Shown here piece after piece: positions 5,476 through 28,419 of a DNA stretch of 32,000 nucleotides. The first letter of the stretch is position 1. Each line of letters begins with the position of its first letter. The notes beneath the pieces are model-generated. The model had not been told where the DNA came from. It worked only from the letters and a program-made list of their open reading frames with translations, and did no database searches. Position numbers and translations under genes: made by a program. Origin of the DNA: Candidatus Scalindua sp. (lineage in GTDB: Bacteria; Planctomycetota; Brocadiia; Brocadiales; Scalinduaceae); NCBI GenBank assembly GCA_031316235.1, contig JALDRA010000001.1, positions 2,250,001 to 2,282,000 on the forward strand. Direction: 5' to 3'.

Positions 5476-6163
5476 CATTCTTGAGAGCGCCGATTAAAAC
5501 CGGCAAGAAGTAGGGGCTGAAAGTGACCTATGGTGATGGGTTAACTACCCACATCAGCCCTGAGTCATGCGTTAATGATGATAACATTATTAACAAAGCG
5601 TTGACACCAGCCCGACGTGCATTCTGGCAGGGGGAGAAATGCGGGCTGAGTATTGAGCCTCGTAATAGATTTAATATCAAGTGCCGATGTACTTCGTGAA
5701 CATAGAAGGCAAAATCTTATGGTTCGCTTTGGTAAGGACTATAAGTACTTGACGGGGTCGGAGACCTCATGCATGCATGGAAACTTTTGCTCTAATGAAC
5801 TCTTGCCATGTCCTTCTGAACTCCTTCCAGAGTTAGGCGAGAAGATATTCCGAAGGACATTCATCTTGTTTTTTTTGAAATAAGTTTCGGTAACATGTAG
5901 AAATAGGATTTCAAAAAAAGAATCTTGCTAAGCGTATACGATGTTGTGGAACTTACCAATTATGTCAATAAGGTCAATTTGGAATTATTAAAATCAACAA
6001 TTATGAATAATTGCAAGCGGCAAGTAAAGACATTGAGTTATCTTAATTTCTATTGATTATTACTCTTTACTAAATTAAGATGTATTACTAATAAGACATC
6101 CATAATAGTTCGTCAGAACAAGTAGGCTCACAAATAAGCAAGAACACACGGCAACACTAACCA

Positions 6164-6752: not shown

Positions 6753-8758
6753 CGTGAGTTTATTACGAAAGTGATATTGTTTTAAGGTGTGTATGCTGTA
6801 ACCAGTTACAACGTAATTTGTTACAGTTTTTTTTGTATCAATATTTAATGTATACACTGAATATAATATTATTAATACTTGCTTAACATTCAATATGTAG
6901 TATAATTACTGCTTTATTACAACATATGTATACACTAAGTCAGGAGGAAGCTATCGCCACCATTCAATCAAAAACCTCAAGAGGCTACAAATACTGGTAT
7001 ATAGTTGAATCCAGACGCGTAAACGGAAAACCAAGACCAATCGTATTGGCATATCTTGGTAAAGCCAATGACCTGTTGAGAAGGCTACAGGGCCTTACAG
7101 AAGGGTTACGGTTAAAATCATATTCGCATGGCGCTGTGGCAGCACTACTCAATGTCGCCCATAAATTAGATGTCACTACTATAATAAACAAACATATAAA
7201 CGCTCAAAGGCCTTATATGTCCGAAAAACCTACAAGAAACAATCTGACAGCAGGGATTACCTTTTTGTTGGGATCAATAGGACGGATTTGCATGCCTACC
7301 AGTAAAAGAGACTGGTGGAACTGGGCAAAGACAACTACCTGCGAATACTTGCTCAGGTGCAGTTTGAGCAAAATAGATAGCCAGCATTATTGGGATTTGA
7401 TGGACGCTCTGCCTGTAGAATCAATACCAGAAATTGAACACGAGTTGCTCGATAATGCTTTCAATACATATGGCCTGAAGAGTGATACTCTTTTTTTTGA
7501 CACGACAAATTTCTTTACCTACATTGATAGCACAAATATGAGGTGCGCGATTGCACAGCGAGGCAAAAACAAACAAAAGAGATGCGACCTTAGACAGGTA
7601 GGGCTGGCTATGGTGGTTACGCGAGAAGATATGATTCCTGTGTTTCATCATGCTTATGAAGGCAACATGAACGATACGAAAGTTTTTAAAATCGTTATAG
7701 AAAAGATAAAGGGCAGAATAAAAGAATCAGGCTTGAATACAAAGATGCACACGGTTGTCTTTGACCGTGGAAACAATTCCAAGGTGAACCTGGTAATTGT
7801 GAAAAAACTGCAACTGCATTATGTTGGTGCGCTCACCCCTTATCATCACAAGGAGTTGGTAAATGATGCTATGGAGAATTTCCAGGAGCTTGAAGTTGAT
7901 GGTAAGAATATATGGATTTACCGGGACAAACGAATTATTTGGCAAGAAGAGAGGGCCGTTATTGTTTTTATCTCAGAGAGATTAAAGAGTGGGCAGATAA
8001 GGGGAATATATCAATCACTGGGAAAGGCAGAAAAACAGTTACAGCAATTGCAGGAATCTTTGTCTAAACCAAAGGCAAAGAAGCGGGACAGGAAACAATT
8101 GGAAGATAAAATAACAAATATCGTTAAAGGGCAATTTATAAAAGATATTATTGATTGGTCGTTAAATGGGACATCAGAAGGCAAGTTTTGTTTAGAGTTT
8201 ACAATCAATCAAGCAAGACTTGGTGAAATAGAGAAGAAATTGGGATTCAGGATTCTCATGACAGACCGTCATGAATGGGAAACTGTTGAAATTATAAAAA
8301 CTTACTATGGACAATCTATGATTGAACAATCTTTTAAGAACCTTAAAAATCCTTACCACCTTGCACTTAGACCTCAGTTCCATTGGACAGATCAGAAAAT
8401 CAAGGTGCATTTCTTTATTTGTGTACTCGGGTATCTCCTTGCCACAATAGTGTGGAGAGAGGCGAGGACGAAGGCTCAATTCAGGGGGACTTTAGATAGA
8501 TTGATTGACACCCTGAACAATGTGAGGCTTGCTGCAATACTGGAAGACTCAAAGACAAGGGGAAGAGTCAAAGCGGCATATAAGTTGGAAGAAATGTCTG
8601 ATGCGGAAGAAGTGATAATTAAAGCACTGGAGGTTAAAGATGCACACAATAATCGAACAAAGTTTAAGGGTGTTAGTGTATACAATTAGGGTCACACTTA
8701 ACCATAGTAATATACTTATCTTACGGTAGATCAGACTTGCGTTCGTAATAAACTCACG
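6753..8758 (+). mobile_element. IS1634-family (IS4-like) insertion sequence, apparently intact
   Basis: There are 17-bp perfect terminal inverted repeats: CGTGAGTTTATTACGAA at 6753-6769 and its complement at 8742-8758. A single 587-aa transposase gene is present. The flanks reassemble into one continuous sequence when compared with 11445-11571. Confidence 0.8.
6926..8689 (+). CDS. IS1634-family DDE transposase
   Basis: The N-terminus YKYWYIVESRRVNGKPRPIVLAYLGKANDL is typical of IS1634-type transposases. Acidic-residue motifs are FFDTTNFFTY and VVFDRGNNS. The ORF is full length between the inverted repeats. Confidence 0.85.
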   Translation: MYTLSQEEAIATIQSKTSRGYKYWYIVESRRVNGKPRPIVLAYLGKANDLLRRLQGLTEGLRLKSYSHGAVAALLNVAHKLDVTTIINKHINAQRPYMSEKPTRNNLTAGITFLLGSIGRICMPTSKRDWWNWAKTTTCEYLLRCSLSKIDSQHYWDLMDALPVESIPEIEHELLDNAFNTYGLKSDTLFFDTTNFFTYIDSTNMRCAIAQRGKNKQKRCDLRQVGLAMVVTREDMIPVFHHAYEGNMNDTKVFKIVIEKIKGRIKESGLNTKMHTVVFDRGNNSKVNLVIVKKLQLHYVGALTPYHHKELVNDAMENFQELEVDGKNIWIYRDKRIIWQEERAVIVFISERLKSGQIRGIYQSLGKAEKQLQQLQESLSKPKAKKRDRKQLEDKITNIVKGQFIKDIIDWSLNGTSEGKFCLEFTINQARLGEIEKKLGFRILMTDRHEWETVEIIKTYYGQSMIEQSFKNLKNPYHLALRPQFHWTDQKIKVHFFICVLGYLLATIVWREARTKAQFRGTLDRLIDTLNNVRLAAILEDSKTRGRVKAAYKLEEMSDAEEVIIKALEVKDAHNNRTKFKGVSVYN

Positions 8759-9971: not shown

Positions 9972-10162
9972 TGCCTTCTTGTCCCGTATGAATAACCGTA
10001 TACTATAATCTTTAACAACATCTTTGGATGGTATTCTTTTGCTCCCGCTTTTATTGCATTTATTACTATTCCCAGATCGGAAAAATTTAATGCATCTATA
10101 AATGCATCATATACTCGTACAGGATCATTTGGCAGACAAGCGCAATTTCTGCTGAAGCTCAA
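9968..10162 (-). pseudogene. N-terminal fragment of an IS5/IS1182-type (DUF772-containing) transposase
   Basis: ...VRVYDAFIDALNFSDLGI...GAKEYHPKMLLKIIVYGYSYGTR resembles the conserved YHP..MLK.L.YGYSYG.RS N-terminal region. It truncates after 64 aa exactly at the inverted REP-like unit. Confidence 0.55.
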
Positions 10163-10916
10163 CCATGGGACTCTGGTTTACTTTAAACATTCCTTCTGCA
10201 CCCCGATCAAGATCCAAAACAAGTAATAAAATTGCCGAAAATACAAGAGACAGAATCAGACTAATCAGAATACCTCCACCTCTGTTATGGCCGAAGTCAT
10301 AACCTACAGAAAACATTGTTAGTATCATCACAAAATAAAGCACCATCCAGATACTTCCAGGTATGCGGTACACAAGAAAGACTGTTACCCGTTTCTCTTG
10401 CAGGTCAATAACCTCGTTTAGTGACTGTGCATAAAGTCCAAACAATACCGAATCATTATTTTTTCTGGAAAGTGAGGTCACCTGTGACCAAAGCAGCCTA
10501 TGCAACTCCTCTGATTCCACCAATGCTTTTGATAGTTCAGCTGGATTCCTAGCCACTTCCACCCTGATATCTACATATCTCTTTAATATTTTTCGAGTCT
10601 CTGAACCTTCTGGTTCAGCCAAAAAATCTGTGCGCAAATAAGCGGTACCGATAGCGCTGACCTCGTCCAATAATAATTGCTTGCGAGAATCATATCGGGA
10701 AGCTGCCAGTCCAAAAGTGAAAGCGAGTATGAATGCAAGTAAGCCGAGCATTGAGCCAATAATCGTTCCTGTTGGAGTTTCTTTTTTATGGGTCTTGTGG
10801 TGCCTTATATAGCTTCCCAGTTTGAATCCAATTGTTATCGAGAGAAAGACTATAGCAGTTGTGATGATATACATCAATGGAAGGGGAATTTTGTCAAATG
10901 CGAAATTGATATCCAT
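10125..10916 (-). CDS. Integral membrane protein, DUF4239-like (function unknown)
   Basis: The likely start is the Met of MDINFAFDKIPLPL (10916); the track ORF extends to 10979. Two N-terminal TM helices, a soluble helical middle and two C-terminal TM helices fit the DUF4239 architecture as I recall it. Confidence 0.5.
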   Translation of the reverse strand: MDINFAFDKIPLPLMYIITTAIVFLSITIGFKLGSYIRHHKTHKKETPTGTIIGSMLGLLAFILAFTFGLAASRYDSRKQLLLDEVSAIGTAYLRTDFLAEPEGSETRKILKRYVDIRVEVARNPAELSKALVESEELHRLLWSQVTSLSRKNNDSVLFGLYAQSLNEVIDLQEKRVTVFLVYRIPGSIWMVLYFVMILTMFSVGYDFGHNRGGGILISLILSLVFSAILLLVLDLDRGAEGMFKVNQSPMVELQQKLRLSAK

Positions 10917-11444
10917 ATAATAGACGAATCCTTTCCCGGGACAGTTGACAAGAATATAATCAGTTTCTGAATAATACAACTATTGCAACAATAACCAAAT
11001 AACCCTGCATTTCAATTGAAAAAATAACAGAAATGGCTACCTGATTTCAATCTGAATATCAATCAACCATAAATCATGAGCGTTTCATTATGAAAAAGAC
11101 AATATCGTATTGCTATAACAATATGCGTCTTGCTTCTTGTTATAGTTTTGATGGATAAAACATTTTGATTGCGGTTGTCAAAAGGACAGAGCAAGACATC
11201 ACAAACCTCATTCTTCCTGTAAATCCACACTTTAGATTAACACATTAGCCCTGGAACCCAAATAGAATAACCTTCTTCTGTTTTCTTAATGTTTACTTTG
11301 TACCTCATAAATCTCTCCAAATTCAATAACTATACTCCGCAATCAGGGTATTTTCGCACTAAATATTTCATTTGTCAATAGGATAGACTCTGACATGACA
11401 AACCTTCATATTTAACACTATGTATACTACTTATCGCTACTTTT

Positions 11445-11858: not shown

Positions 11859-12257
11859 ATGGGAGCAACGGTAAATAGTTTTAAAGCAACACACCAGGCA
11901 GCAGCAGGTTTATTAGGGCAAATTAATTCTCAGAGCGGACAAGAAAGAGCCAATACCCTTAATGGTTTAAAGGAGGCTTTATTAGCACACGTTGGAGAAG
12001 AAAATAAAGTTATAACAGAAGCAATCGAAAAGTCAAAAGATGAGTCTTTTAAGTCGGCAGCAAGGGCGTTTCTAGATGAACTCGGAAAGATTGCCGAGAC
12101 TGCGTTATTGCCATTCTTCGGTAAATATTCATCAGCTGATGCTGTAGATAGCGACGATTTTGCGAATGATTTCGCTGGTATAAAAAACGCACTTGTAGAC
12201 AGGATTGCGTTTGAGGAAGCAAAGTTTTATCCAGAACTTGAAAAGCTTGGTTATTGA
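11859..12257 (+). CDS. Small soluble helical protein, tentatively hemerythrin-like (HHE-type) domain
   Basis: RBS AAAGGAG upstream. ...LKEALLAHVGEENKVI... and ...RIAFEEAKFYPELEK resemble the H...EE / ..FEE..l.P helices of hemerythrin-like domains, but the ligand set looks incomplete. Confidence 0.4.
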   Translation: MGATVNSFKATHQAAAGLLGQINSQSGQERANTLNGLKEALLAHVGEENKVITEAIEKSKDESFKSAARAFLDELGKIAETALLPFFGKYSSADAVDSDDFANDFAGIKNALVDRIAFEEAKFYPELEKLGY

Positions 12258-12684: not shown

Positions 12685-14718
12685 ATGGAAAACCTGCAAA
12701 TAAACATCAATCATGTCTGGGTTATGGCTGCAGCCTGTATGGTATTTTTCATGCAACTGGGCTTTACCTCCTACGAAGCGGGCTTCGCACAATCAAAAAA
12801 TGCCATTAGCGTTTCTATTAGAAACCTGATGGTTACTGTCATAGCTCCCCTGGTATTTTACACCTTTGGATTTGGATTTATGTTTGGTGAAAGCTATGTT
12901 GGGTGGATTGGATTAGATCATTTCTTTGCCAGAGGGGTAATGACACATCAGGGTAATCTGGCTTTTAGCTTTTTCTTTTTTCAATTGGTCTTTGCCGCTA
13001 CTGCCGCTACCATAATGACAGGCGCTATGGCAGAACGTTCGAATTTTATTTCTAATGTGGTGGGAGTCGTATTTGTGACAGGCATTATCTACCCGATTTT
13101 CGGCCATTGGGTATGGGGGAATCTCTTTTGTCCAGAACAATCCGGCTGGCTGGGAAGATTGGGGTTTATTGATTTTGCAGGCTCCACGGTGGTGCACTCG
13201 ATTGGCGGATGGTTTGCTTTGGCCGGGGCATTGGTTGTGGGTCCAAGAATTGGTAAGTATAATCCCGATGGTTCTTCAAATCGAATGGGGTTACATAACA
13301 TTCCGTTGGCTACACTGGGTACTTTTTTCCTCTGGTTTGGTTGGTTTGGATTTAATGGAGGAAGTCTCTTCCGGTCAGGCGCAAACATAGGCCTCGTTAT
13401 TACAAACACAAATCTTGCGCCGGCAGCAGCAGGAGCATCAGCGCTGATATTTAATTACATAAAGGAGAAGAGAATCAATGTTGACAGGTTTTTCACAGCG
13501 ATCCTGGCAGGACTGGTAGCGATAACAGCAGGCTCTAACAGGCTAAATCCTGAAGACGCTGTTTATATCGGTCTTATTACAGGTATCGTTGTGATCCTGG
13601 CTCAGGACTTTATTGAAAAGATATTAAAGATCGATGATCCCGTGGCTGCCATCGCCGTTCATGGGGTGGGAGGCGTTATAGGCACCCTCTGCGTTGCGCC
13701 TTTCGCCGACAAATCAACCCTTCTTGTTGAAAACAACAGCCGCATTCTCCAACTGGGCATTCAGGCAGTTGGCGTTGGGACAGCCTTTGTATGGTCGTTT
13801 GGGCTGGGAATTCTATTCTTCTGGTGCGTCAAAAAGACTTTAGGCATACGGGTAAGCCCTGAGGAAGAAAGAAAGGGGCTCAATGTGGCCGAATACGAAG
13901 ACGTGGCTTCCTGGCTTGATTTTATTCGTATTACAAGGCTTCAAGACTTGAACACCCTCCTGGAAAAGAGAGTTGAAGAAAGAACAGATGAACTTCATAA
14001 GACAAACATTGCACTGGAAAAGGCCAACAGACTTAAATCAGAGTTTTTGGCTAACATGTCTCATGAGTTGCGTACTCCACTCAATGCAATCATTGGTTTT
14101 GCCGAAGTTTTAAGGGACGAAGTCGTCGGGGCCCTCAGCGCCGAACAAAAAGAATACCTGAGCGATATTCACGGAAGCGGCCAGCACCTGCTCAATATGA
14201 TTGACAGCATCCTGGATCTATCAAAAATTGAGGCCGGGAAATTAGAACTCCACTACGAAGAGTTTCCAATAAAAGAGACTGTCAATGAGGTGCTTAATAC
14301 CATTATTGGAATCTCCAATAAGAAGGGCATTCAGATACATAGTAACATCCAGACGGATGTTCCTTCCATAAAAGGAGACAAAGTAAAGTTTAAACAGATA
14401 ATGTTCAATCTATTATCCAACGCTGTCAAGTTTACGCCGGAAAATGGCAGGGTTGTTATCAATGCAGGCCTTAAGAACCAGCATATCCAGGTTGCAGTGA
14501 GCGACACCGGTATCGGAATAAAACCTGAAGACATGGACAAAATATTTGAAGCATTTCTTCAGGTAGATGCCTCATACGCACGTCATTATGAGGGAACCGG
14601 ACTTGGCTTGACACTCACAAAACGACTGATCGAATTGCACGGAGGCAAGATATGGGTAATAAGCGACTTTGGGAAAGGAAGCACCTTTACTTTTACGCTA
14701 CCCTTAAAACCAAAATAA
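12685..14718 (+). CDS. amt: Ammonium transporter (Amt/MEP) domain fused to a histidine kinase (HisKA + HATPase_c); Ks-Amt5-type ammonium sensor kinase
   Basis: The N-terminal ~400 aa carry Amt hallmarks (FMQLGFTSYEAG, DFAGSTVVHSIGG, FGWFGFNGGS, AVHGVGG). A coiled-coil linker leads to the H-box SHELRTPLN, an N-box (LLSNAVKFT) and G-boxes (DTGIGI, GTGLGL). Confidence 0.9.
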   Translation: MENLQININHVWVMAAACMVFFMQLGFTSYEAGFAQSKNAISVSIRNLMVTVIAPLVFYTFGFGFMFGESYVGWIGLDHFFARGVMTHQGNLAFSFFFFQLVFAATAATIMTGAMAERSNFISNVVGVVFVTGIIYPIFGHWVWGNLFCPEQSGWLGRLGFIDFAGSTVVHSIGGWFALAGALVVGPRIGKYNPDGSSNRMGLHNIPLATLGTFFLWFGWFGFNGGSLFRSGANIGLVITNTNLAPAAAGASALIFNYIKEKRINVDRFFTAILAGLVAITAGSNRLNPEDAVYIGLITGIVVILAQDFIEKILKIDDPVAAIAVHGVGGVIGTLCVAPFADKSTLLVENNSRILQLGIQAVGVGTAFVWSFGLGILFFWCVKKTLGIRVSPEEERKGLNVAEYEDVASWLDFIRITRLQDLNTLLEKRVEERTDELHKTNIALEKANRLKSEFLANMSHELRTPLNAIIGFAEVLRDEVVGALSAEQKEYLSDIHGSGQHLLNMIDSILDLSKIEAGKLELHYEEFPIKETVNEVLNTIIGISNKKGIQIHSNIQTDVPSIKGDKVKFKQIMFNLLSNAVKFTPENGRVVINAGLKNQHIQVAVSDTGIGIKPEDMDKIFEAFLQVDASYARHYEGTGLGLTLTKRLIELHGGKIWVISDFGKGSTFTFTLPLKPK

Positions 14719-15063
14719 AAATATCTCTTAACTCCAAGTATGCAAAATGATTTTCCGCAAAAGGTAACTTGTTTTTTTTTTTAGTAATGCCTAAATTCTG
14801 CAAATGCCACCCTTGAAACTTCCTGCAGTAGTATTTGTTTCCATTTTTATTCTCTCATAAAGACTCAATAAAGAGAGAAAGTAATTTAAATCTTCTGATC
14901 TCAATAAGTTATATATTGAGAGAATTCATAATCTTTATCGAGTGGTAAACCTTAGGGAGTTTCAAAATCAGAAATAACAAAAACGGTTTGAGCTGTCAGG
15001 GGTCTTCGTTCTACCAGGAAAAGTATTCTTTTTGCATAACCTGAATAGGCTCACATTACCTAT

Positions 15064-15192
15064 TATACTCATCTCATACTGGATTTCGGATACAATCCGA
15101 GATAAATTTGAGCGAGTAAAGTCCTCGGCGCTTTTTGTCCGGGGATACTTTCACCAGGATTTGGTTTCCGGTAAAACCGAAAACCAAATCGG
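15064..15192 (+). repeat. Repeat family R2, copy 2, carrying a ~27-nt inserted submodule
   Basis: It has the same modules as copy 1. AAAGTCCTCGGCGCTTTTTGTCCGGGG (15118-15144) is inserted between hairpins; the reverse complement of that submodule occurs at 30249-30273 next to copy 3. Confidence 0.75.
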
Positions 15193-15208
15193 TTTTAGTA
15201 TTTAACCA

Positions 15209-15946
15209 TTACACTTCCTCTTTTTTTCTTAAGATCAATATAATAGTAATTAACTCACTGTCTTCAGTGAACAGCTTTATTAGGTTCGCGTTTATAGTAT
15301 AAGGATACTGAGTATTTGAAAAATAAACAAGAAAATCGCTTATCTTCTCCTGCGTATTCTTTATTGTATCTAAGCAGTCTGATAGATTCATGTCTGCCAG
15401 AAACGCAAGGAGATCCAAGTTTTCCTTTTCTGTTTCACGGATAGTTAAAAAGTCTCTGGCCGCTTGATTTATATGTTTAACTTTCCATTGTTTGTCTGCA
15501 ACGACCACGCCTTCTGTTAAATGAGGGATGAGAGCATCTAATACCACGGAATTCTTTTTTTGGGCAGTTCCTTTTTTTGTGCGAATTAATGCCTTCACCC
15601 TTGCCAGGAGCTCTGCTTTATTAAAGGGTTTGCTGATAAAATCGTCCGCACCCGCGTCAATACCCTTAATGCGATCATCCATCTCGCGTAAAGAGGTAAT
15701 CAACACAATCGGCAGGTTACTGGTTTTCTCGTCTGCGCGCAATTTTTCGCATACTTCATATCCCGTAAGCTTTGGCATCATAATGTCCAGCAAGATTAAA
15801 TCCGGATTCTCTGTTTTTACCTTTTCCAGCGCTTCTTCACCATCATAGGCCTCAACGACGTCATATTCGGATGCGGTCAGAATTACGCGCAATAATTTTA
15901 CATTCTGTTTAACATCGTCAGCAACTAATATTTTTGCTTTACCCAT
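15209..15946 (-). CDS. Response regulator: receiver domain plus C-terminal PAS-like domain, no DNA-binding domain
   Basis: ILVADD...DLILLDIMMP...ITS...KP receiver motifs. The C-terminal ~110 aa (LTEGVVVADKQWKVKHINQAARDFL...) look PAS-like. Confidence 0.8.
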   Translation of the reverse strand: MGKAKILVADDVKQNVKLLRVILTASEYDVVEAYDGEEALEKVKTENPDLILLDIMMPKLTGYEVCEKLRADEKTSNLPIVLITSLREMDDRIKGIDAGADDFISKPFNKAELLARVKALIRTKKGTAQKKNSVVLDALIPHLTEGVVVADKQWKVKHINQAARDFLTIRETEKENLDLLAFLADMNLSDCLDTIKNTQEKISDFLVYFSNTQYPYTINANLIKLFTEDSELITIILILRKKEEV

Positions 15947-15953
15947 ATCTCTT

Positions 15954-16328
15954 TCAAGTTTTCCTTAAATACTGTTCCATGATGTTTATCAACTCATGGG
16001 TATCGATAGGTTTGCTGATATAGCCGTTACACCCGGAAGATAATATTTTCTGCTCATCACCCTTCATAGCAAAAGCAGTTACGGCTATGATGGGGATATC
16101 ATTTGTATTTGCATCTTCCTTAATTTGTTTAGCAAGTGTAATGCCGTCAATACCGGGCAGTTGGATATCCATAAGAATAATATCTGGTTTTTGTTTCTTT
16201 AACGCACTTATGGCCTCCTCACCGGTAGTTGCCTCAATCACATTGTAGCCTTTTGATTTGAGTATTACCCGCATTAATTTTCTGTTCTTCTCGTTATCTT
16301 CAACTACCATTACATTCTTATCGGACAT
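15954..16328 (-). CDS. Single-domain CheY-like response regulator
   Basis: A 124-aa protein with VMVVEDN...DIILMDIQLPGIDG...VTA...GYISKP and nothing beyond the receiver domain. Confidence 0.85.
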   Translation of the reverse strand: MSDKNVMVVEDNEKNRKLMRVILKSKGYNVIEATTGEEAISALKKQKPDIILMDIQLPGIDGITLAKQIKEDANTNDIPIIAVTAFAMKGDEQKILSSGCNGYISKPIDTHELINIMEQYLRKT

Positions 16329-16365
16329 ATAATTTTCCTTTGCTCATTATTGATCTGATTTAGTA

Positions 16366-18783
16366 TTATTTTTCATGTAATTTTTCGATATTCTGAATTT
16401 CCCTGAGAAGCTCTTCCTTCGTATGACTTCCCTTTTGTACAATTGCCATAATATTACCATTCAATACTTTTTTGTCTTCTTCGGTAATATCCTTAGAGGA
16501 ACAGATAACAATAGGAATATTCTTTGTTTTTTGATGTTTTCTGAGGTTTTCCACAACATCAAAACCGCTGATATCCGGCATCATCAGATCAAGTATGATC
16601 ATATCTGGATTATTATTTATGGCAAGCTCGATTCCTGCTTTACCTCCATACGCCGTAAGTACCCGAAACCCTGCATTCTCAAGAATGGCCCTGATGTATT
16701 TCACGGCCTCTTCGTCATCATCTACAACCAATATTTCCATTGGTTTATCCTTTGTGCTTAGATTTGATGTGATAATTTCTACCGTGTTGATGAGTATTTT
16801 CCTGTCAACTGGTTTCATCAGGTAGCTGGCTGCACCCAAACTATACCCGAGATTCTTATTATCAACAATCGACACAATAATGACCGGAATATCCGCTGTC
16901 TCCGGAAAATTCTTAAGCTTTGAAAGAACTTCCCACCCGTCTACCTTCGGCAGCATGATATCAAGAGTAATCAAAAATGGTTTAAATTCCTTTGCCTTTT
17001 TGATAGCTTCTTTGCCATCCACTGCAACAATTACATTATAACCTTCATTTGTCAAATATACGGCAAGAAGATCAGCGGCCATACGGTTGTCCTCCACTAC
17101 CAGAATGGTCTTCACATCATTTCCAGCCAGCTTGTGCTGTCTGGCTTCATTCACCTTTGGCTTTGGAATACGAAAGGTAGCCTTTAGCGGTAACGTAAAA
17201 CAAAAGGTACTTCCCTTTTCATATTCACTTTTGAACCAGATCTTCCCACCATGCATTTCTACAATCCTTTTTGTCAAAGCGAGTCCCAACCCGGTTCCCT
17301 GGTATTTTCGTGAAAAGGAGTTATCCGCCTGCCAGAATTCTTTGAATACCTTCTCCTGATCTTCAGGTTTCATCCCTATTCCCGAGTCCGTTACCGAAAC
17401 CTGTAACGTATCGTCTATAATGCTCGCCTTTGTGATAATATTACCATTTTCTGAAGTGAACTTTATGGCATTTGAGAGCAGATTATAAAGAACCTGTTTA
17501 AATTTAACCCTGTCTGCCTCAATGTCTTTTGTCTCCGGATGTATTTCTGTCTGTAAGTGTAAATGCTTTTTATCAGCAAGCCCCTGTATTATATGGTACA
17601 CATCTTGAATAGCATCAGTCACAGAAAATACCTCATGTTGAAGAACCATTTTCCCTGCCTCAATTTTAGATAAATCGAGGATATCGTTTATCATTTGCAA
17701 AAGATGATAGCCGCTACTGTGAATATCTTTTACAAAATCCAACTGTTCTTCGTTGAGATCACCGCAAATCTTGTCCCTGAGTACCTCTGCAAAACCAATG
17801 ATTGCATTGAGTGGAGTACGCAACTCATGAGACATGTTAGCCAGAAACTCTGATTTCAGTTTATTGGCACGTTTCAGGGCTATGTTCGCCTCCTGTAAAT
17901 GAGCGGTTTTCTCGGCAATTCGCTGTTCTAATAATGAATAAGAAGAGCGTAATTTACTGGACATGTCGTTAAAGGCCCTGCCGAGTCGTCCGACTTCATC
18001 ATTAGATGAAATATCAACCTTTGTCGAAAGATCTCCGGTTTTTGTTACAATCGCTGCAGCCGCCGTTAGTTTTTCAATGGGCCTCATGAGTTTGCCTGTG
18101 ATAAAGAAAATAATCACCACAATCAGCAGGATACTGACAACGCCAACAATGAGAAAAAAAATAATATCAGATGCAAACCGTTGCTCAGCTATTTCTTTTG
18201 GAATAATAACACTCAAAGCTCCCTTGATTTCCCCCAGCTTATAATCATATCCCGCACTGTAATTTTTCTGTATAACCTCCGGAGCCTTTTCTTTCGGTCC
18301 ATGACAGAGAAGGCATTCCTCTTTTACATATAAAGCGTACATATAACGTTCTACCCTGTTCCCCTCTATAATGTCATCTGACCAGTATTCCACAAGGCTG
18401 GAATCTGCTTCCATTTTCTTAAGCATTTCTTCCTCAAAGGCGTCTGGTTTATTTTCCTCATTTCGGTAACGCAAACTTGTCTGTTTAATAATATAGCCGG
18501 TCCTCTCAGCAAACTTTTTGCTGATAGCATTCGTAGCAATGGCCGGGACAAAATGTTTTGTCCTGTCATTAATTTCAATGTTTTGAGAGTGTATAACGGA
18601 TGCAAGGTAATTCCTCGAAGTTTCCAATTCTATGACCAACATCCGTGCCTTCTCCTGGATTTCCTTGATGAATTCCTGGTGTGTTCGTTTATAAACCAAG
18701 AAAGCTACTATGCCGTTCAAAGTAACGAGTAACGCAGCCAATAAAATTACTAATTTATGTCTTATCTTCATACTTCTTCTCAA
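16366..18783 (-). CDS. Hybrid sensor histidine kinase: TM, DUF3365/Tll0287-like extracytoplasmic domain with a CxxCH heme-c motif, TM, HAMP, HisKA, HATPase_c, two receiver domains
   Basis: ECLLCHGPKEKAPEV lies between two TM helices. HAMP (DEVGRLGRAFNDM), the H-box SHELRTPLN, DSGIGM/GTGLGL, then two REC domains (ILVVEDN...LDIMLP; ILVVDDD...LDLMMP). An alternative start is Met5 (18771). Confidence 0.85.
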   Translation of the reverse strand: MRRSMKIRHKLVILLAALLVTLNGIVAFLVYKRTHQEFIKEIQEKARMLVIELETSRNYLASVIHSQNIEINDRTKHFVPAIATNAISKKFAERTGYIIKQTSLRYRNEENKPDAFEEEMLKKMEADSSLVEYWSDDIIEGNRVERYMYALYVKEECLLCHGPKEKAPEVIQKNYSAGYDYKLGEIKGALSVIIPKEIAEQRFASDIIFFLIVGVVSILLIVVIIFFITGKLMRPIEKLTAAAAIVTKTGDLSTKVDISSNDEVGRLGRAFNDMSSKLRSSYSLLEQRIAEKTAHLQEANIALKRANKLKSEFLANMSHELRTPLNAIIGFAEVLRDKICGDLNEEQLDFVKDIHSSGYHLLQMINDILDLSKIEAGKMVLQHEVFSVTDAIQDVYHIIQGLADKKHLHLQTEIHPETKDIEADRVKFKQVLYNLLSNAIKFTSENGNIITKASIIDDTLQVSVTDSGIGMKPEDQEKVFKEFWQADNSFSRKYQGTGLGLALTKRIVEMHGGKIWFKSEYEKGSTFCFTLPLKATFRIPKPKVNEARQHKLAGNDVKTILVVEDNRMAADLLAVYLTNEGYNVIVAVDGKEAIKKAKEFKPFLITLDIMLPKVDGWEVLSKLKNFPETADIPVIIVSIVDNKNLGYSLGAASYLMKPVDRKILINTVEIITSNLSTKDKPMEILVVDDDEEAVKYIRAILENAGFRVLTAYGGKAGIELAINNNPDMIILDLMMPDISGFDVVENLRKHQKTKNIPIVICSSKDITEEDKKVLNGNIMAIVQKGSHTKEELLREIQNIEKLHEK

Positions 18784-21097
18784 CAGTAATAGCCCCTAAC
18801 GGGCAACATTTTTCAAACCCTGGCTGGACATCCCATTCAGATGTTTTTTCAGCAATAATCTTTGCCTTATCCGCAACCACTTCCATAGCACCTTCAGAAT
18901 TCGCGACGCATATTCCACAGCCGACACATTTCGCTTCATCTACGTTCACCGTAACAGGTTTATCACCACCCGTTATAGTTGCCTGATCAAGATAGTGAAA
19001 GTGTTCTTTCCCGGGAATTTCATCGGTATATTCTGACGTACGCCTTTTTAATTGCTGTCGGCCTTTTCGGTTATAAATAAAAATTGAGCGTCCACATTGA
19101 TTACAGATATGTAGTTGCTGCAGCTTATCAAGATAATCAATCACCGTCTGGACTACCGTTGCATGGCTCCATGTTAAAGGAGAAACAGAAACAGGCTCGC
19201 CCGTATATGGATCAATCTGCTCTGCGAGCACGCCTGAAGGTAACGCCCGTGATACTGCCCACTTGAGATGTTGCACCACACATTCGAGGTCTTTTGTAGA
19301 TTTCGCTATCAATGATTGATATTGTGCCAACCACATTGTACAGATTATCCACGGGTTGCCCGGCATCGATTCATCATTACTTACACGCTGATATGGATCA
19401 CGCTCGTATCTGGCTATTCCTCCTATGTTAGTTTTAACCCACAGGCTTTCCTCAATCGACCTCATCGTGTTTTTTACTTTAATATCATCCGGATGGTAAA
19501 CACCAAAGGCAAACATCCCATATAAGCTGGCATCAACGGTTGCGTCAATTTCATATCCTCCGTCTTTTTTGGGATAAATCATCCGCACAAACCTCTTGTG
19601 TTTTTCACTATAAAGATATTTACCAATAGCGTTTCTCATTTGTGCGGCAGTCTGTCTGTACAATCTGGCCTTTTCAGTATGACAAAATATTTCAGAAAGT
19701 TTCGCTGCGGCTATCAGGCCGCCATATACGGCCGCCGTTGTAAACGACAAGACCCCGCGCCTCTCCTCCCATAAGTCATAGGAAGGAAGGGGAAGACCCG
19801 TCTGTTCGTCACGATAACTTACAAGAAAATCTGCGGCCTTTTCTATGAAAGTGTGATAGAGTGATCGTATTACTTCAATATTTCTATATATGTCATAGTA
19901 TTGACCGATAGCCCAGAGGACCAGGGCCGTCTCATCCTCCTGAATCGGTATATGGATATCCTCTCCAATTACCCATGGATGCCATGAACTGCCGAAAGAA
20001 CCGTCAGGATTATATTTATGCAATAAAAATCCGTCTTCAGCCATGACACTTGCACAGAAATTGTAAGGTGTAATTACCCGTGAGCAGAAATCAAAAAAAT
20101 TTCTGCACTGTGTTGTATAACCCGCCTTCATCAGTGCATAGCTTACCAATGCCCCGTCGCGAGGCCACATATAACTGTAGGTATCCCTTGCGTATTGGCT
20201 GATATCGGTGTCATTTGCGGCAATGATTGCTCCTCCTCTATCAATCTGTGTCGCAATGACGAGTAAGCTCCGTTTAAAAAGAGCCACTACTTCGAGAGGC
20301 AAATTACCAAAGTTGAATTCCTCTTTATTCACCCAATGCCACCAATAACTCGCCGTTCTGTCAATAATTGCCTGAGGTTTCTCGCTTAAAATGAGGTTAT
20401 TCAGGTCGTTAACATCTCCATAATTATTACCAGCAGCAATCCAATAATACGCAAGAGACTCCCCTAAGGGTGAAATTTTCATGGGAATTCCTATTATAGA
20501 ATCCACAGAACCTTGAGCAATGGGGTTTCCTCCAAGAATACCATCTTCGGCATCACGCCAGGTACCTTCTGCTCCGTGAAGCTTCTTTACTCCCGTTGCG
20601 TATTGACGAACACCCCAAAAATCTTCAGTAGAACAATTAACAAGAAAATACCTGGAGCCTTTGTAGTGGATAAGACTATTTTGCTTGGCGTCATAAAAAA
20701 CCGTATCACCAATATCATTTTCAAGGACACTCAAATCCAGATGAAAGAAAAGCCGAACTTCTCTTTCCTCGTTTTTCATATTGCTCACTAATATCTTACG
20801 CAGATAGATATTTTTCTCAAAATCTACAACGTCGTTGCAGGTCAATTTGATCTGCAGGGATTCGTTTATCGCTTGCACGGAAGTGACAAGGGTTTCCTTC
20901 TGATATTCAAGTGTTAATTTCCAATCGTTTGCGTTAATCCATGAAAATCCTTTCGATGTCCACACACCGAATCTACTCGGATTTCCCATGGAGTGATTCT
21001 CCTTCCCGACATAAGGATAGTATATATCACGGATAGTATAGTTTGCGTCGAAAGTTACTAATAAAGACCCGTTTCCTATGGGAATATCTCTTGGCAC
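18755..21097 (-). CDS. Glycoside hydrolase family 15 (glucoamylase/glucodextranase-like) fused to a C-terminal CxxC segment and a single-cluster [4Fe-4S] ferredoxin domain
   Basis: The N-terminus IGNGSLLVTFDANYTIRDIYYPYVG and the (alpha/alpha)6-type core (SYMWPRDGA, LWEER, TWSHA) fit GH15. The last 119 aa (18755-19114) contain CNQCG and CVGCGICV...CCPLGAI. Confidence 0.75.
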   Translation of the reverse strand: MPRDIPIGNGSLLVTFDANYTIRDIYYPYVGKENHSMGNPSRFGVWTSKGFSWINANDWKLTLEYQKETLVTSVQAINESLQIKLTCNDVVDFEKNIYLRKILVSNMKNEEREVRLFFHLDLSVLENDIGDTVFYDAKQNSLIHYKGSRYFLVNCSTEDFWGVRQYATGVKKLHGAEGTWRDAEDGILGGNPIAQGSVDSIIGIPMKISPLGESLAYYWIAAGNNYGDVNDLNNLILSEKPQAIIDRTASYWWHWVNKEEFNFGNLPLEVVALFKRSLLVIATQIDRGGAIIAANDTDISQYARDTYSYMWPRDGALVSYALMKAGYTTQCRNFFDFCSRVITPYNFCASVMAEDGFLLHKYNPDGSFGSSWHPWVIGEDIHIPIQEDETALVLWAIGQYYDIYRNIEVIRSLYHTFIEKAADFLVSYRDEQTGLPLPSYDLWEERRGVLSFTTAAVYGGLIAAAKLSEIFCHTEKARLYRQTAAQMRNAIGKYLYSEKHKRFVRMIYPKKDGGYEIDATVDASLYGMFAFGVYHPDDIKVKNTMRSIEESLWVKTNIGGIARYERDPYQRVSNDESMPGNPWIICTMWLAQYQSLIAKSTKDLECVVQHLKWAVSRALPSGVLAEQIDPYTGEPVSVSPLTWSHATVVQTVIDYLDKLQQLHICNQCGRSIFIYNRKGRQQLKRRTSEYTDEIPGKEHFHYLDQATITGGDKPVTVNVDEAKCVGCGICVANSEGAMEVVADKAKIIAEKTSEWDVQPGFEKCCPLGAITVEKKYEDKT

Positions 21098-21664: not shown

Positions 21665-24600
21665 TTATCTGTACACAGCAAGCAGATCTCCGGTCTCGAC
21701 ACAATCTCTTGGCTTAACCAGAACCTGGCTGATTTCTCCGTCGCATTCGGCGTAAATGGTGGCCTCCATCTTCATCGCCTCCATAATCAAAAGCGCATCA
21801 TTCTTTACGACCTTATCACCGGCGGCAACTTTTACTTTGACTATCATACCCGGCATGGGAGCGCCAACATGTTTGTTATTTCCTTCCTCTACCCGGGGGC
21901 GCCTGGTTATTGAAGACGCAACTTTACGGTTGGCAATTACAACTTCACGCGGTTGCCCGTTCAGTTCAAAAAATACCGTACAGTTTCCGTCCTCATTGGC
22001 CGGACTGATTGCCACCAGTTTGAGAATCAGGGTTTTTCCTTCTTCAATATCAATGAAAACTTCCTCATGCATAGGCAGGCCATAAAAGAACACATCTGTA
22101 GGAATGATAGAGACATCATCATACTTCCTCTTGTGCGCTGCATATTCGAGAAATACTGCAGGGTACATTACATACGACATGAGTTCTTCGTTTGTAATAG
22201 TTCTCAGGATACGGGCCTCAACTTTTTCTTTCACCTCTTCAAGGTTTACGGGCGGCAGATTAGAGCCCGGTCTTTCGGTAAATGCAGGCGCTCCCCGTAA
22301 AATTTTATACTGGACTTCTTTCGGAAAACCTCCGGTCGGCTGGCCAAGACGGCCCTCAAAAAATTCAACAACTGAGGTGGGAAATGAAATATCCCTCTCT
22401 CCGCTGAGAATATCCTGAGCCTTCATATTATTGGTAACCAGAAACAGTGTCATATCTCCTACTACTTTTGAAGAAGGGGTTACTTTTACAATATCACCAA
22501 AAATCTGATTGACGTCAGCATAGACATCCGTAATTTCACGCCACCGGTGTGACAGCCCCATGGAGTGTGCCTGCTGGAAAAGATTGGTAAACTGTCCTCC
22601 GGGTATTTCATGATGATATACCTCCGCAGTGCTTGCCTTCTGAACGGATTCAAATGGCGTGTAATACTCTCTGACCACTTCCCAGTAATCCGAGAGCAGT
22701 CCCAGGGCCTTGAAGTCCATGCCTGTGCTGTGGTCATGAAAACGAAGCATCTCTACCAATGTGTTCAAATTGGGCTGTGATGTTAGCCCGGAGAAGGGGC
22801 CCATCGCCGCATCCACAATATCCACACCTGCTTCCGCAGCCTTTATCAGGGTTGCGATTTGACCGCCTGAGGTATCATGCGTATGTAAATGTATGGGAAT
22901 ATTTATTTCCGACTTCAAGGCACAAACAAGTTCATAAGCAGCGTATGGTTTCAGCAGCCCCGCCATATCTTTTATTGCCAGTATATGAGCACCCAGTTCT
23001 TCTAATTCTTTTGCCATTTTCACATAATAACCAAGGTTGAACTTGGTACGCTTCGGGTCTAATATATCACCGGTATAGCATATTGCCGCTTCACACAAAA
23101 CACCGGTTTCCAGAACAGCATCGATCGCCACCTTCATATTTTCAACCCAGTTAAGCGAATCGAAGACACGAAATACGTCTATACCGCTTTCGGCAGCCTG
23201 TTTGATAAACTCCTTTACAACATTATCGGGATAGTTTGTATATCCTACGCCGTTCGATGCCCTGAGCAGCATTTGAAAAAGTATATTGGGAGCAAGCCTG
23301 CGCATGGAACGCAAACGATCCCAGGGACACTCCGTAAGAAACCTCATGGCAGTATCAAAGGTTGCCCCTCCCCACATTTCAAGAGAGAAAAAATCGGCAT
23401 GGTTTCTGGAATATACCTCAGAAATTTTCAGCATATCTATGGTTCTCATGCGGGTTGCAAGCAATGACTGATGTGCATCGCGAAACGTCGTATCCGTCAG
23501 CAACAGTCTTTTTTCGTCACGAATATAACGGGCAAATTTTGCCGGCCCCATTTCAAGCAACAGATCACGGGTTCCTCTGGGCCTGGATATTTTATGGTCA
23601 AAAGGAGGTACCGGCGCGGTGCGGCGGCATATTGATTTGGGTATTTCCCTGATGAGAGAGTGGCCATTGACAAGAACGTTTCCGAGAAAACGCATGATTA
23701 GGGTAGCACGGTCTCTGCGTCGGGGAAAACAGAAAAGGTTCTGATTTTCATCAATAAAAATTGTAGTGCACTTTCCTTCCAGGATATCCTTATGATTGAC
23801 AAGATTTATCAGAAAGGGAATATTGGTCTTTACACCGCGGATCCTGAATTCATCCAGAGCCCTGTCCATGCGGCTGACTGCGTCCTCAAAACAAATACCA
23901 AATGCCGTGACCTTCACAAGCAGCGAATCGTAAAAAGGGGTAACAATAGCTCCGGAAAAAGCGGTTCCCGCATCAAGACGGATACCCATGCCCCCGGCAG
24001 AACGATAATGCTGAATACGCCCATAGTCGGGAATAAACTTATTGGCCGGGTCTTCAGTGGTAATTCTGCATTGGAGGGCAGCTCCCCTGATCTGGATTGA
24101 CTTTTGGTCAGGTATGCGGATCTCCGGAGAGTGAAGAGGGTACCCTTCACTGATTAATATCTGTCTTTTGACAAGATCGATCCCGGTTATCGCCTCTGTG
24201 ACGGTGTGTTCAACCTGAATTCTCGGGTTGATTTCAATAAAATAAAATTTATCAGTTTCTGTGTCGAGAAGGAATTCTACCGTACCGGCATTATCATAAT
24301 TTACCGATTTACATATTCTTACCGCAGTGTCACAGATATTCTGCCTGATACCTGCATCAAGATTCTGTGCAGGTGCAATCTCGACAACTTTCTGATGACG
24401 TCTTTGGAGAGAGCAGTCACGCTCATAAAGGTGCACAATATTATGGTGTTTGTCCCCGAGAATCTGCACCTCGATATGGCGCGCCTTTTCAATGTATTTT
24501 TCGATGAAACATTCATCGGAACCAAAGGCTGTCATGGACTCGCGCTGGGCCTCATTGAGGCGGCTGATTAATTCCGTCTCGCTGCGAACTACGCGCATTC

Positions 24601-25114
24601 CCCTGCCTCCCCCTCCATGGACAGCCTTGATAATAACCGGATAACCCAGTTGACTGCAAAATGCCACAGCTTCCTCCGAACTTTTCACAGGAGCGTTGTT
24701 TCCCGAAAGTATGGGTACCTGAGCCTTTTCGGCAATCTGCTTTGCTGAGGTTTTGTTGCCAAGAAGCGTAAGAATTTCCGGGCGGGGTCCAATAAAGGCA
24801 ATACCTGCATTTTCGCACGTACGGGCAAAGTCCGTATTCTCAGATAGAAATCCGTAGCCCGGATGTATGGCGTCAACTTCCTTGTCTTTGGCAATCTGAA
24901 TAATTCCTTCGATATCAAGATACGCCTTAACTGGATTTTTGTCCGTACCCGTCAGATACGCTTCATCCGCTTTAAATCTATGAAGCGCAAAGCGGTCTTC
25001 GTGAGAATATATTGCTACAGTCCTTATACCTAATTCATGTGCCGCCCGGCAGACCCGTATCGCAATTTCACTGCGGTTGGCAACAAGTAGTTTTTTAAAT
25101 TTTCTGATTTCCAT
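21665..25114 (-). CDS. pyc: Pyruvate carboxylase, single-chain (biotin carboxylase + carboxyltransferase + biotinyl domains)
   Basis: A 1149-aa protein. The N-terminal ATP-grasp BC domain carries GGGGRGM and EMNPR-like INPRIQVEH. The central HMGL-like CT domain carries HTHDTSG. The C-terminus has the biotinylation motif EAMKME. Confidence 0.95.
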   Translation of the reverse strand: MEIRKFKKLLVANRSEIAIRVCRAAHELGIRTVAIYSHEDRFALHRFKADEAYLTGTDKNPVKAYLDIEGIIQIAKDKEVDAIHPGYGFLSENTDFARTCENAGIAFIGPRPEILTLLGNKTSAKQIAEKAQVPILSGNNAPVKSSEEAVAFCSQLGYPVIIKAVHGGGGRGMRVVRSETELISRLNEAQRESMTAFGSDECFIEKYIEKARHIEVQILGDKHHNIVHLYERDCSLQRRHQKVVEIAPAQNLDAGIRQNICDTAVRICKSVNYDNAGTVEFLLDTETDKFYFIEINPRIQVEHTVTEAITGIDLVKRQILISEGYPLHSPEIRIPDQKSIQIRGAALQCRITTEDPANKFIPDYGRIQHYRSAGGMGIRLDAGTAFSGAIVTPFYDSLLVKVTAFGICFEDAVSRMDRALDEFRIRGVKTNIPFLINLVNHKDILEGKCTTIFIDENQNLFCFPRRRDRATLIMRFLGNVLVNGHSLIREIPKSICRRTAPVPPFDHKISRPRGTRDLLLEMGPAKFARYIRDEKRLLLTDTTFRDAHQSLLATRMRTIDMLKISEVYSRNHADFFSLEMWGGATFDTAMRFLTECPWDRLRSMRRLAPNILFQMLLRASNGVGYTNYPDNVVKEFIKQAAESGIDVFRVFDSLNWVENMKVAIDAVLETGVLCEAAICYTGDILDPKRTKFNLGYYVKMAKELEELGAHILAIKDMAGLLKPYAAYELVCALKSEINIPIHLHTHDTSGGQIATLIKAAEAGVDIVDAAMGPFSGLTSQPNLNTLVEMLRFHDHSTGMDFKALGLLSDYWEVVREYYTPFESVQKASTAEVYHHEIPGGQFTNLFQQAHSMGLSHRWREITDVYADVNQIFGDIVKVTPSSKVVGDMTLFLVTNNMKAQDILSGERDISFPTSVVEFFEGRLGQPTGGFPKEVQYKILRGAPAFTERPGSNLPPVNLEEVKEKVEARILRTITNEELMSYVMYPAVFLEYAAHKRKYDDVSIIPTDVFFYGLPMHEEVFIDIEEGKTLILKLVAISPANEDGNCTVFFELNGQPREVVIANRKVASSITRRPRVEEGNNKHVGAPMPGMIVKVKVAAGDKVVKNDALLIMEAMKMEATIYAECDGEISQVLVKPRDCVETGDLLAVYR

Positions 25115-28087: not shown

Positions 28088-28208
28088 TTTCTTTCTCCTT
28101 TTTACCACGAGTGTAATAATTTTATGTTTATCATTCAACCGTAACTACTTCAACAGTCTCGGCTTGCCTGTCGTTGATAATTAGCTAAACGTCTTCGCTC
28201 TCTGGCTT

Positions 28209-28406
28209 TTAAATTGCGGTCATCTCAAACGAGTCCGGATTTGTGTCAGTGATTTCCGTATATTGGTAAAACTTTGCGCTGGCAGTGATACTCTTTTTAT
28301 CTTTTTTAAGAATGATCTGAAGGTCTTTTACCTTGATCAAATCATTGTGTCCGTGTCCCAGTCGTCCAATGATCCATGCGGTTTTTATATCAACAAAGAC
28401 AGCCAT
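28209..28406 (-). CDS. Hypothetical small protein (65 aa) in the AT-rich spacer between porin and sulfatase genes
   Basis: An ORF from Met (MAVFVDIKTAWIIGRLGHGHNDL...) begins 14 nt after the porin stop. It shows no recognisable motifs, and the long version in the track overlaps the porin gene. Confidence 0.25.
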   Translation of the reverse strand: MAVFVDIKTAWIIGRLGHGHNDLIKVKDLQIILKKDKKSITASAKFYQYTEITDTNPDSFEMTAI

Positions 28407-28419
28407 ATCCACCAGGACC

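Follow-up and report, generated by a model that had tools for sequence, protein, structure and literature searches.

A conserved anammox operon with a putative iron-sulfur GH15 protein, a heme-c Cache hybrid kinase and two receivers devoid of output, adjoining an ammonium receptor kinase in one lineage

The window analysed here is a stretch of 32,000 nucleotides from Candidatus Scalindua sp. (contig JALDRA010000001.1, positions 2,250,001 to 2,282,000 of the forward strand), and all positions are numbered over this whole window. Its central part carries a plus-strand gene encoding an ammonium-transporter-type protein fused to a histidine kinase (Amt-HK), which converges on four minus-strand genes. 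These encode, in their order of transcription, a glycoside hydrolase family 15 protein with a ferredoxin-like C-terminus (GH15-Fd), a hybrid histidine kinase with a heme-c sensor (HHK), a stand-alone receiver of 124 amino acids (REC124) and a receiver followed by a PAS domain (REC-PAS). A six-frame list of open reading frames (ORFs) returned the five genes exactly at the coordinates of an earlier note on this DNA (hereafter the original prediction), and together with Pfam and NCBIfam profile searches it bore out their domains and operon-like packing, no DNA-binding domain being found by these searches in any signalling protein of the locus (Table 1). Setting aside near-identical proteins (at least 90% identity) labelled Ca. 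Scalindua sp., the closest named relatives of the locus genes are those of Brocadia, Jettenia and Kuenenia.

Table 1. Genes, domains and presumed functional residues of the locus (window numbering; domain scores from Pfam).
Feature	Position	Strand	Description
Amt-HK	12685..14718	+	677 aa; Ammonium_transp 370 bits, HisKA, HATPase_c
Amt-HK, Amt module	12715-13908		residues 11-408
Amt-HK, linker	13891-13923		EYEDVASWLDF
Amt-HK, HisKA/HATPase			residues 451-675
Amt-HK, phospho-His H460	14062-14064	+	H-box
Convergent spacer	14719..15208	none	490 nt between the two transcription units
REC-PAS response regulator	15209..15946	-	245 aa; REC 110.7 bits, C-terminal domain; neither enzymatic nor DNA-binding output
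REC-PAS, PAS domain	15224-15538	-	approximately residues 137-241; profile searches
REC-PAS, acceptor D54	15785-15787	-	REC domain
REC124, DivK/CheY-like receiver	15954..16328	-	124 aa; stand-alone, REC only, 110 bits
REC124, acceptor D54	16167-16169	-	REC domain
REC124, alpha1 docking helix	16254-16301	-	EDNEKNRKLMRVILK; shared with Amt-linked receivers
HHK	16366..18783	-	805 aa; Tll0287-like/DUF3365 120 bits, HAMP, HisKA, HATPase_c, two REC
HHK, region downstream of TM2		-	HAMP; HisKA/HATPase with H319 (17827-17829); REC1 D608; REC2 D732
HHK, sCache_heme/Tll0287-like sensor	18199-18678	-	residues 36-195, between transmembrane segments TM1 (7-32) and TM2 (201-237)
HHK, CLLCH	18301-18315	-	residues 157-161; heme-c attachment motif
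GH15-Fd	18755..21097	-	780 aa; Glyco_hydro_15 115 bits
GH15-Fd, ferredoxin-like domain	18770-19000	-	one-cluster domain; CVGCGIC 18908-18928, CCP 18800-18808
GH15-Fd, Cys knuckle CNQCGR	19088-19105	-	C-terminal
GH15-Fd, catalytic Glu E626	within 19217-19225	-	invariant in 40 homologues
GH15-Fd, catalytic Glu E444	within 19763-19771	-	invariant in 40 homologues

The minus-strand genes are separated by 37 nt (HHK-REC124) and 7 nt (REC124-REC-PAS), the ORFs of GH15-Fd and HHK overlap by 29 nt, and sequences resembling Shine-Dalgarno sites precede every downstream start of the cluster. The 29-nt overlap, reported by the original prediction, stands as an overlap of ORFs; translation of HHK more probably begins at ATG 18771 than at 18783, because gagaagaag precedes this ATG and the orthologues begin with MKIRHK, which shortens the overlap to 17 nt. 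As for GH15-Fd, an identical NCBI protein (P0121) is annotated with 744 amino acids, 36 residues shorter than the form listed here. The 780-residue, GTG-initiated form is probably right, because the orthologues align from residue 1. The spacer between the two transcription units contains a T11 run after the Amt-HK stop, and immediately beyond the REC-PAS stop, on its 3' side, there is a 15-bp hairpin (15158-15190; inverted repeat I2, with 93% complementarity). No credible ORF occurs within the spacer, and an Rfam scan of the whole window placed no RNA family in it, nor in or near the five genes. Promoter and terminator scans yielded counts no higher than in shuffled sequences and were not used.

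The cluster was compared among six Brocadiaceae lineages, namely the window, L087, L089 (Jettenia), L090 (B188), L091 (Kuenenia sp.) and L092 (Brocadia, CP091279). The HHK, REC124 and REC-PAS genes occur together and in the same order in all six of them, and GH15-Fd lies directly upstream of HHK, with a stop/start overlap of 4-17 nt, in four (the window, L087, L089 and L091). From the synteny of the trio in 6/6 lineages and of GH15-Fd in 4/6, we judge that the predicted four-gene operon is real and probably ancestral. The linkage of GH15-Fd to the kinase genes, as claimed by the original prediction, is thereby upheld, in four of the six lineages. The trio comes after transposase or toxin-antitoxin genes in B188 and Brocadia CP091279; in B188-type contigs, GH15-Fd is found on its own. 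In the Kuenenia sp. locus (L091:11208-15749), genes for a PAS kinase, a 148-residue receiver and a REC-PAS-GGDEF-EAL protein come after the trio on the same strand, and the last of these proteins is a possible cyclic di-GMP (c-di-GMP) output of the module. Immediately upstream of GH15-Fd, L087:7486-9981 and L089:7302-9670 carry genes for Usp, archease and the RNA ligase RtcB that are not present there in the window; its upstream gene is that of pyruvate carboxylase (21665-25114, minus strand).

The Amt-HK matches the structure of Ks-Amt5 (kust_3690) from Ca. Kuenenia stuttgartiensis (PDB 6EU6, E 3.4e-192), and is 70% identical to the K. stuttgartiensis protein over its full length, with the same succession of Amt module, EYxDVxSWLDF linker and HisKA-HATPase transmitter (PMC5764959). 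Its Amt fold is complete (positions 1-398 of the 399 of PF00909 are matched), the twin histidines H171 and H326 are kept, and the C-terminal fusion scores 86 bits for HisKA and 110 bits for HATPase, with H460 present. The residues of the N1/N2 pocket (Q24, E31, R46, N47, T51, T106 and N124) are all identical between the Amt-HK and Ks-Amt5, and it is these residues that define ammonium receptors (AmR; PMC11152129). We identify the window protein as an orthologue of Ks-Amt5 and a predicted receptor kinase of the AmR type, in line with the likeness to this ammonium sensor pointed out by the original prediction. By its pocket it belongs to the same class as Sd-Amt1, an ammonium receptor of Amt-HAMP-GGDEF architecture (PMC11152129). 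Ammonium-dependent autophosphorylation without net transport was shown for Ks-Amt5 alone (PMC5764959); unlike it, the window protein belongs to another genus and another genomic neighbourhood, and is known from its sequence. The response regulator (RR) of Ks-Amt5 was described as 'a yet to be identified RR' (PMC5764959), in agreement with the original prediction, which knew of no defined receiver. A contig scan with generic Amt motifs (WFGWFGF, VHSxGGW) also found five non-anammox Amt-HK fusions among the matches listed (L001, L002, L006, L013 and L014). One of them, from an Anaerolineae metagenome-assembled genome (L013:1269-5300), is a hybrid Amt-kinase with a kinase core and two receivers 42% identical to those of the window heme kinase, and after it comes a gene for a stand-alone receiver that shares 40% identity with REC124.

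The neighbourhood of the Amt-HK is not conserved. The Kuenenia gene has transposases on its flanks; that of Brocadia (AMX2/sinica type) is followed by genes for a nitroreductase, a Macro protein and an unrelated GAF-PAS kinase with its receiver; that of B188 is followed by dehydrogenase and aldolase genes, and no cluster gene is nearby in any of the three. A metagenome scan with the family-specific linker motif returned 53 loci, 32 of them with a Brocadiaceae-type Amt-HK, among which 14 were informative over at least 3 kb downstream and 11 over at least 3 kb upstream. In no case was REC124, REC-PAS, the heme sensor or GH15 present, nor the hemerythrin and bestrophin-like genes that the window has upstream. 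At the L125 locus, whose Amt-HK is approximately 88% identical and whose downstream region is visible over 8.9 kb, genes for an M16 peptidase and a spermidine-synthase-like protein take the place of the cluster. Conversely, no Amt-HK was found within 10 kb at the five other cluster loci. The Amt-HK (P0001) and REC124 (P0242) of a 95%-identical relative are carried by one ENA contig of 78,399 bp, and this relative probably shares the window arrangement. An insertion of the cluster between the Amt-HK and a conserved neighbour was considered and rejected, no window gene flanking them recurring near the other Amt-HK or trio loci. From these comparisons, the Amt-HK appears as a separate, convergent transcription unit that adjoins the operon only in the window lineage, hence a chance neighbour. 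The original prediction, according to which the locus integrates ammonium as a unit, had itself named beforehand such a lack of conserved linkage as refuting, and this part of it falls.

The two kinases are nevertheless related through their transmitters, for the identity between the Amt-HK and HHK cores is 56% inside the window and 59-61% across genera. LKSEFLANMSHELRTPLNAIIGFAEVLRD is found unchanged in both cores, where a stretch of 29 residues covering the H-box and the first helix of the dimerization and histidine phosphotransfer (DHp) domain is identical. When the Amt-HK core was searched against 1.84 billion cluster representatives, only four clusters reached at least 59% identity (the Amt-HK, a 540-residue kinase of Brocadia sinica, a 404-residue REC-kinase of B. 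pituitae and the Tll0287 hybrid kinase), all remaining kinases being at most 48% identical. Both cores are thus assigned, by sequence comparison, to one small anammox-specific kinase family. In a distance tree, the Brocadiaceae Amt-HK cores, the heme-kinase cores and a set of deep-branching Amt-HK cores form three sister groups, and the two Brocadia kinases are nested inside the Brocadiaceae Amt-HK clade. The cores of these two (P0371 from Brocadia sinica, WP_200891767.1; P0380 from B. pituitae, BBO17075.1) are 67-70% identical to that clade and follow a 277-residue domain unmatched in Pfam and a REC domain, respectively, which suggests a recent domain shuffling of the Amt-HK transmitter. The Amt-PAS-HK proteins P0106-P0117 were considered as further members of the family and rejected, their cores being only 31-37% identical.

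The deep-branching Amt-HKs, a group to which sequences named Ca. Anammoxibacter belong, point to a partner for this type of kinase. Those of L085 and L146 are 58-59% identical to the window protein and 72% to each other, and in both loci (L085:10001-12447 and L146:10001-12463) the Amt-HK gene is followed, with 2-3 nt between stop and start, by a gene for a receiver of 125-129 residues. Both pairs share their context, with the F-type ATP synthase operon, an AIRS-domain gene and tsaE lying upstream of them. We regard this receiver as the first visible genomic partner of a Ks-Amt5-type kinase, as predicted from gene order. The Amt-linked receivers are 47-60% identical to REC124 versus 22-42% to every other receiver in the examined loci, and have in common with REC124 the alpha1 sequence EDNE[KR]NRKLxxVxLK and the beta5-alpha5 region. 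According to established work on two-component systems, docking to the kinase is determined mainly by alpha1. Because of the paralogy of the cores, the deep-branching Amt-HK-REC operon and the shared alpha1, we propose REC124 as a specific candidate partner of the orphan Brocadiaceae Amt-HK.

REC124 is 75-92% identical across genera, values of 76-85% also having been obtained across Brocadiaceae genera, and has the residues of a receiver (the acidic pocket E10-D11, D54, T84 and K106), with no second domain in its 124 residues. As to the 245-residue protein, whose second half the original prediction had called PAS-like, the C-terminal domain of the window sequence is sub-threshold for PAS (E 0.007). 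PAS (PF00989) was matched in 6/6 orthologues (best E 2e-8), and a match over the whole length of the cytoplasmic PAS domain of WalK (PDB 7DUC) was obtained with the family profile (E 5.6e-6); these profile searches, which replaced a single-sequence AlphaFold model that was unusable (predicted local distance difference test, pLDDT, 33), identify the predicted domain as PAS. Its orthologues in the five other lineages are 59-65% identical. With NCBIfam, the REC domain of REC-PAS matches the PleD family model best (E 6e-48), but with 163.7 bits versus a cutoff of 474, and no GGDEF domain was found in the protein with Pfam and NCBIfam, so that it lacks the REC-REC-GGDEF architecture of PleD. One source names the B188 REC124 'DivK'. 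The alpha1 helices of REC124 and REC-PAS resemble each other, not those of the receivers of HHK itself.

These features recall the DivJ/PleC-DivK/PleD system of Caulobacter, in which several kinases converge on a stand-alone receiver and a second regulator. Both systems comprise an output-less stand-alone receiver, a second receiver protein and more than one paralogous kinase, with no DNA-binding output. The anammox locus differs by the absence of GGDEF and by scores far under the family cutoffs, which makes the likeness an analogy, not a membership, and the convergence of kinases is here inferred. No histidine phosphotransfer (HPt) domain was found with Pfam and NCBIfam in the five proteins or their neighbours, the search being limited to the locus surroundings. 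Because no such domain occurs locally, the locus looks more like this branched pathway than like a His-Asp-His-Asp relay.

The sensor of HHK belongs to the Tll0287-like family, as shown by its match to PF11845 (119.6 bits versus a cutoff of 24.1) and to PDB 5B82, the structure of Tll0287 (E 4.4e-12). The CxxCH motif is kept in 6/6 HHK orthologues. Hydropathy places the domain between two hydrophobic segments, which predicts an extracytoplasmic location, in the periplasm or in the anammoxosome lumen. The DUF3365/Tll0287 family was newly classified as heme-c Cache (sCache_heme) in a 2026 preprint, according to which the members fused to signalling domains bind nitric oxide (NO) tightly and O2 not at all, and the His/Cys-ligated stand-alone members resemble redox proteins (bioRxiv 10.64898/2026.02.01.703092). 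High-affinity NO binding with no stable O2 complex was described there for one P. azotoformans protein only (bioRxiv 10.64898/2026.02.01.703092). Like these members, HHK combines a PF11845 score well above cutoff with CxxCH, and its sensor stands between two transmembrane segments and is followed by HAMP, as in the HAMP-linked P. azotoformans protein. Unlike them, it is fused to a hybrid kinase with two receivers, and its binding of heme and NO is predicted. Its only cysteines in the sensor are the two of CxxCH, and the axial ligand Cys68 of Tll0287 aligns with Pro80, so that HHK has no Cys ligand of the kind found in Tll0287 proper. Because this axial Cys is absent, the distal heme site would be open. 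The sensor fits the signalling class of sCache_heme, recently proposed to sense NO, and by analogy most likely reports NO or the redox state.

The AlphaFold2 model of GH15-Fd (pLDDT 83) has as its best Foldseek match the bacterial glucoamylase 1LF6 from Thermoanaerobacterium (E 2.4e-28). Both proteins have an N-terminal beta-sandwich, an (alpha/alpha)6 barrel and the two catalytic glutamates, but they are 18% identical, and GH15-Fd is extended at its C-terminus by approximately 115 residues, which hold a CxxC knuckle and a ferredoxin-like [4Fe-4S] site. GH15-Fd scores under every curated GH15 equivalog cutoff of NCBIfam (oligosaccharide amylase TIGR01577, 325.9 versus 820.7; glucan 1,4-alpha-glucosidase, 89.8 versus 741.9; trehalase TreH, 88.6 versus 820), so its substrate is not assigned by family. 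The ferredoxin label given by the original prediction holds at the level of the cysteine motif, while the Fer4 profile itself (PF00037) is sub-threshold (16.2 bits versus a cutoff of 21.1), Fer4-family matches being on record for the homologues P0186, P0214 and P0240. The C724-x2-C727-x2-C730 motif and the distal C765-P are kept in all anammox orthologues, in which the second cluster motif is lost, and both CxxCxxCxxxC(P) motifs are complete in more distant homologues. We assign these cysteines as the putative ligands of one [4Fe-4S] cluster. GH15 proteins of approximately 775-815 residues with such a C-terminal extension are widespread beyond anammox bacteria. A search of the available literature returned nothing relevant on GH15-ferredoxin fusions, on glycogen or glucoamylase in anammox bacteria, or on their two-component systems.

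The linker scan also revealed a clade of Amt proteins of approximately 541 residues (L141:3596-12770, L137, L115, L132, L105, L112 and L118). They keep the receptor pocket residues Q24, E31, N47 and T106 (with Lys and Phe as in Sd-Amt1) and the linker of the Ks-Amt5 type, and end in a coiled coil, with no transducer. In all seven loci with a visible downstream region, the next gene encodes a Tll0287-type-HAMP-PAS-GAF-PAS kinase, followed, where the contig continues, by genes for an NtrC-type regulator, P-II and a transporter-type Amt that lacks the pocket. The heme-binding segment is intact in four of these seven kinases and apparently lost in L105, L112 and L118. Predicted ammonium-receptor Amts and Tll0287-type kinases are thus repeatedly associated.

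Taken together, these data lead us to favour, with moderate confidence, the view that the locus consists of a conserved operon built around an output-less heme kinase and of a lineage-specific Amt-HK neighbour, with REC124 as the putative point of convergence. In the mechanism that we infer, for the ligand of the heme domain as for every phosphotransfer step and any effect on GH15-Fd, the c-heme Cache sensor of HHK would relay NO or the redox state by way of HAMP to the kinase core, from which phosphate would pass to the two receivers of HHK itself and to the soluble REC124 and REC-PAS, which would act through protein-protein contacts, with no transcriptional output. GH15-Fd would be translationally coupled upstream, therefore co-expressed with the module, and may be one of its targets. 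The Brocadiaceae Amt-HK would most likely phosphorylate REC124 in trans, thereby making this receiver a convergence point for ammonium and heme-sensor signals, as in DivJ/PleC-DivK. Several points weigh against this view. GH15-Fd lies apart from the trio in two of the six lineages (B188 and Brocadia CP091279), and the case for NO sensing by HHK is carried over from a single Pseudomonas protein that has been characterised. The motif that is invariant in DHp helix 1 is widespread among HisKA kinases, and DHp helix 2 differs at approximately 10 positions between the Amt-HK and HHK. Elsewhere in Brocadiaceae genomes there may be an orphan that is a closer orthologue of the Amt-linked receiver, the comparison made here being one of loci. 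Finally, if the deep-branching genomes carry the heme-kinase trio, REC124 and the Amt-linked receiver are paralogues and possibly insulated from each other.

The last points bear on a rival explanation, according to which HHK serves only the receivers of its own operon, the Amt-HK serves another, unlinked receiver, and the similarity of the cores reflects common descent. Paralogous two-component systems are normally insulated, as known from Laub-type specificity studies, and the difference in DHp helix 2 as well as the 47-60% identity of the Amt-linked receivers to REC124, against 75-92% among the REC124 orthologues themselves, agree with such a separation. It is at odds with the alpha1 docking helix, which is essentially identical in the Amt-linked receivers and REC124, and with the lack of an alternative receiver near any Brocadiaceae Amt-HK examined, the receiver at L083 following a GAF-PAS kinase of its own and being 22% identical; we consider two insulated pathways possible but rather unlikely. 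At the other extreme, the whole 8.4-kb locus would act as one unit, in which both kinases share the two receivers and control GH15-Fd post-translationally in response to ammonium and redox. The adjacency seen in the window, and probably in its 95%-identical relative, would fit this model, as would the paralogy of the kinase cores and the similarity of the receivers. Yet the adjacency is missing in three Brocadiaceae genera, 14 metagenome loci and five cluster loci, it is gone already at approximately 88% Amt-HK identity, and the genes are convergent with a 490-nt spacer and mobile-element debris upstream, which makes the model very improbable. The shared receivers of the original prediction consequently find no support in the linkage of the locus, and they stay plausible from the paralogy of the cores and the deep-branching Amt-HK-REC operon.

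It is also conceivable that GH15-Fd is a passenger, the trio regulating other processes (c-di-GMP turnover, other kinases) and sharing a promoter with it in some lineages. The occurrence of the trio without GH15-Fd in B188 and Brocadia, of GH15-Fd alone in B188-type contigs, and of the PAS kinase, REC and REC-PAS-GGDEF-EAL genes after the Kuenenia sp. trio all speak for it. On the other hand, the overlap of the GH15 stop with the kinase start in four lineages is unusually tight for an unrelated passenger, and this junction is kept while the upstream context varies among lineages. We view this explanation as a serious contender, if a somewhat doubtful one. A bolder extension of the branched pathway, which we put forward as an unlikely but attractive speculation, is that the paralogous kinases read both substrates of hydrazine synthase (ammonium through Amt, NO through the c-heme Cache domain), converge on REC124 and REC-PAS, and adjust the mobilisation of carbon reserves by the Fe-S GH15 protein, as well as other targets, without transcription. 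The pairing in the second clade (sAmt, Tll0287-kinase, NtrC, GlnK, Amt) would then express a general 'ammonium plus NO' logic.

The families of all parts of the locus were known already, and the Amt-HK had been characterised in Kuenenia. New are a conserved anammox operon in which a putative Fe-S GH15 protein is coupled to a hybrid kinase of the heme-c Cache type and to two receivers that lack an output, an anammox-specific family of kinase cores, and a candidate receiver for Ks-Amt5. Ks-Amt5 is the founding ammonium receptor built from a transporter, and its signalling target has been 'yet to be identified' since 2018; REC124 and the deep-branching Amt-HK-REC operon offer a concrete candidate partner, testable with the existing Ks-Amt5 proteins. 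Anammox catabolism proceeds by way of NO, and in these organisms the heme-kinase trio is a candidate module for NO or redox signalling. That it is so closely coupled to a predicted Fe-S-bearing GH15 protein points to a redox-linked control of storage carbohydrate, a subject unexplored in anammox bacteria.

Further upstream of the Amt-HK, the window carries genes for a CbiM/CbiQ/CbiO cobalt transporter (590-3018, plus strand), a bestrophin-like channel (10125-10979, minus strand) and a small hemerythrin (11859-12257, plus strand), none of which is conserved beside the Amt-HK elsewhere. Group II intron RNA domains (5401-5767, plus strand; RF00029; RF02005, 137 bits) are followed by a 587-residue ORF with a weak DDE transposase match (6926-8689, plus strand), both being mobile-element debris 4-7 kb upstream of the Amt-HK. 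At the other end of the window, the G+C content is 0.49-0.56 over positions 26000-30000, as compared with 0.36-0.47 elsewhere. This stretch, which covers genes for a sulfatase with a lectin-like C-terminus (25712-28138, minus strand) and an OprB-type porin (28420-29940, minus strand), may be acquired DNA.

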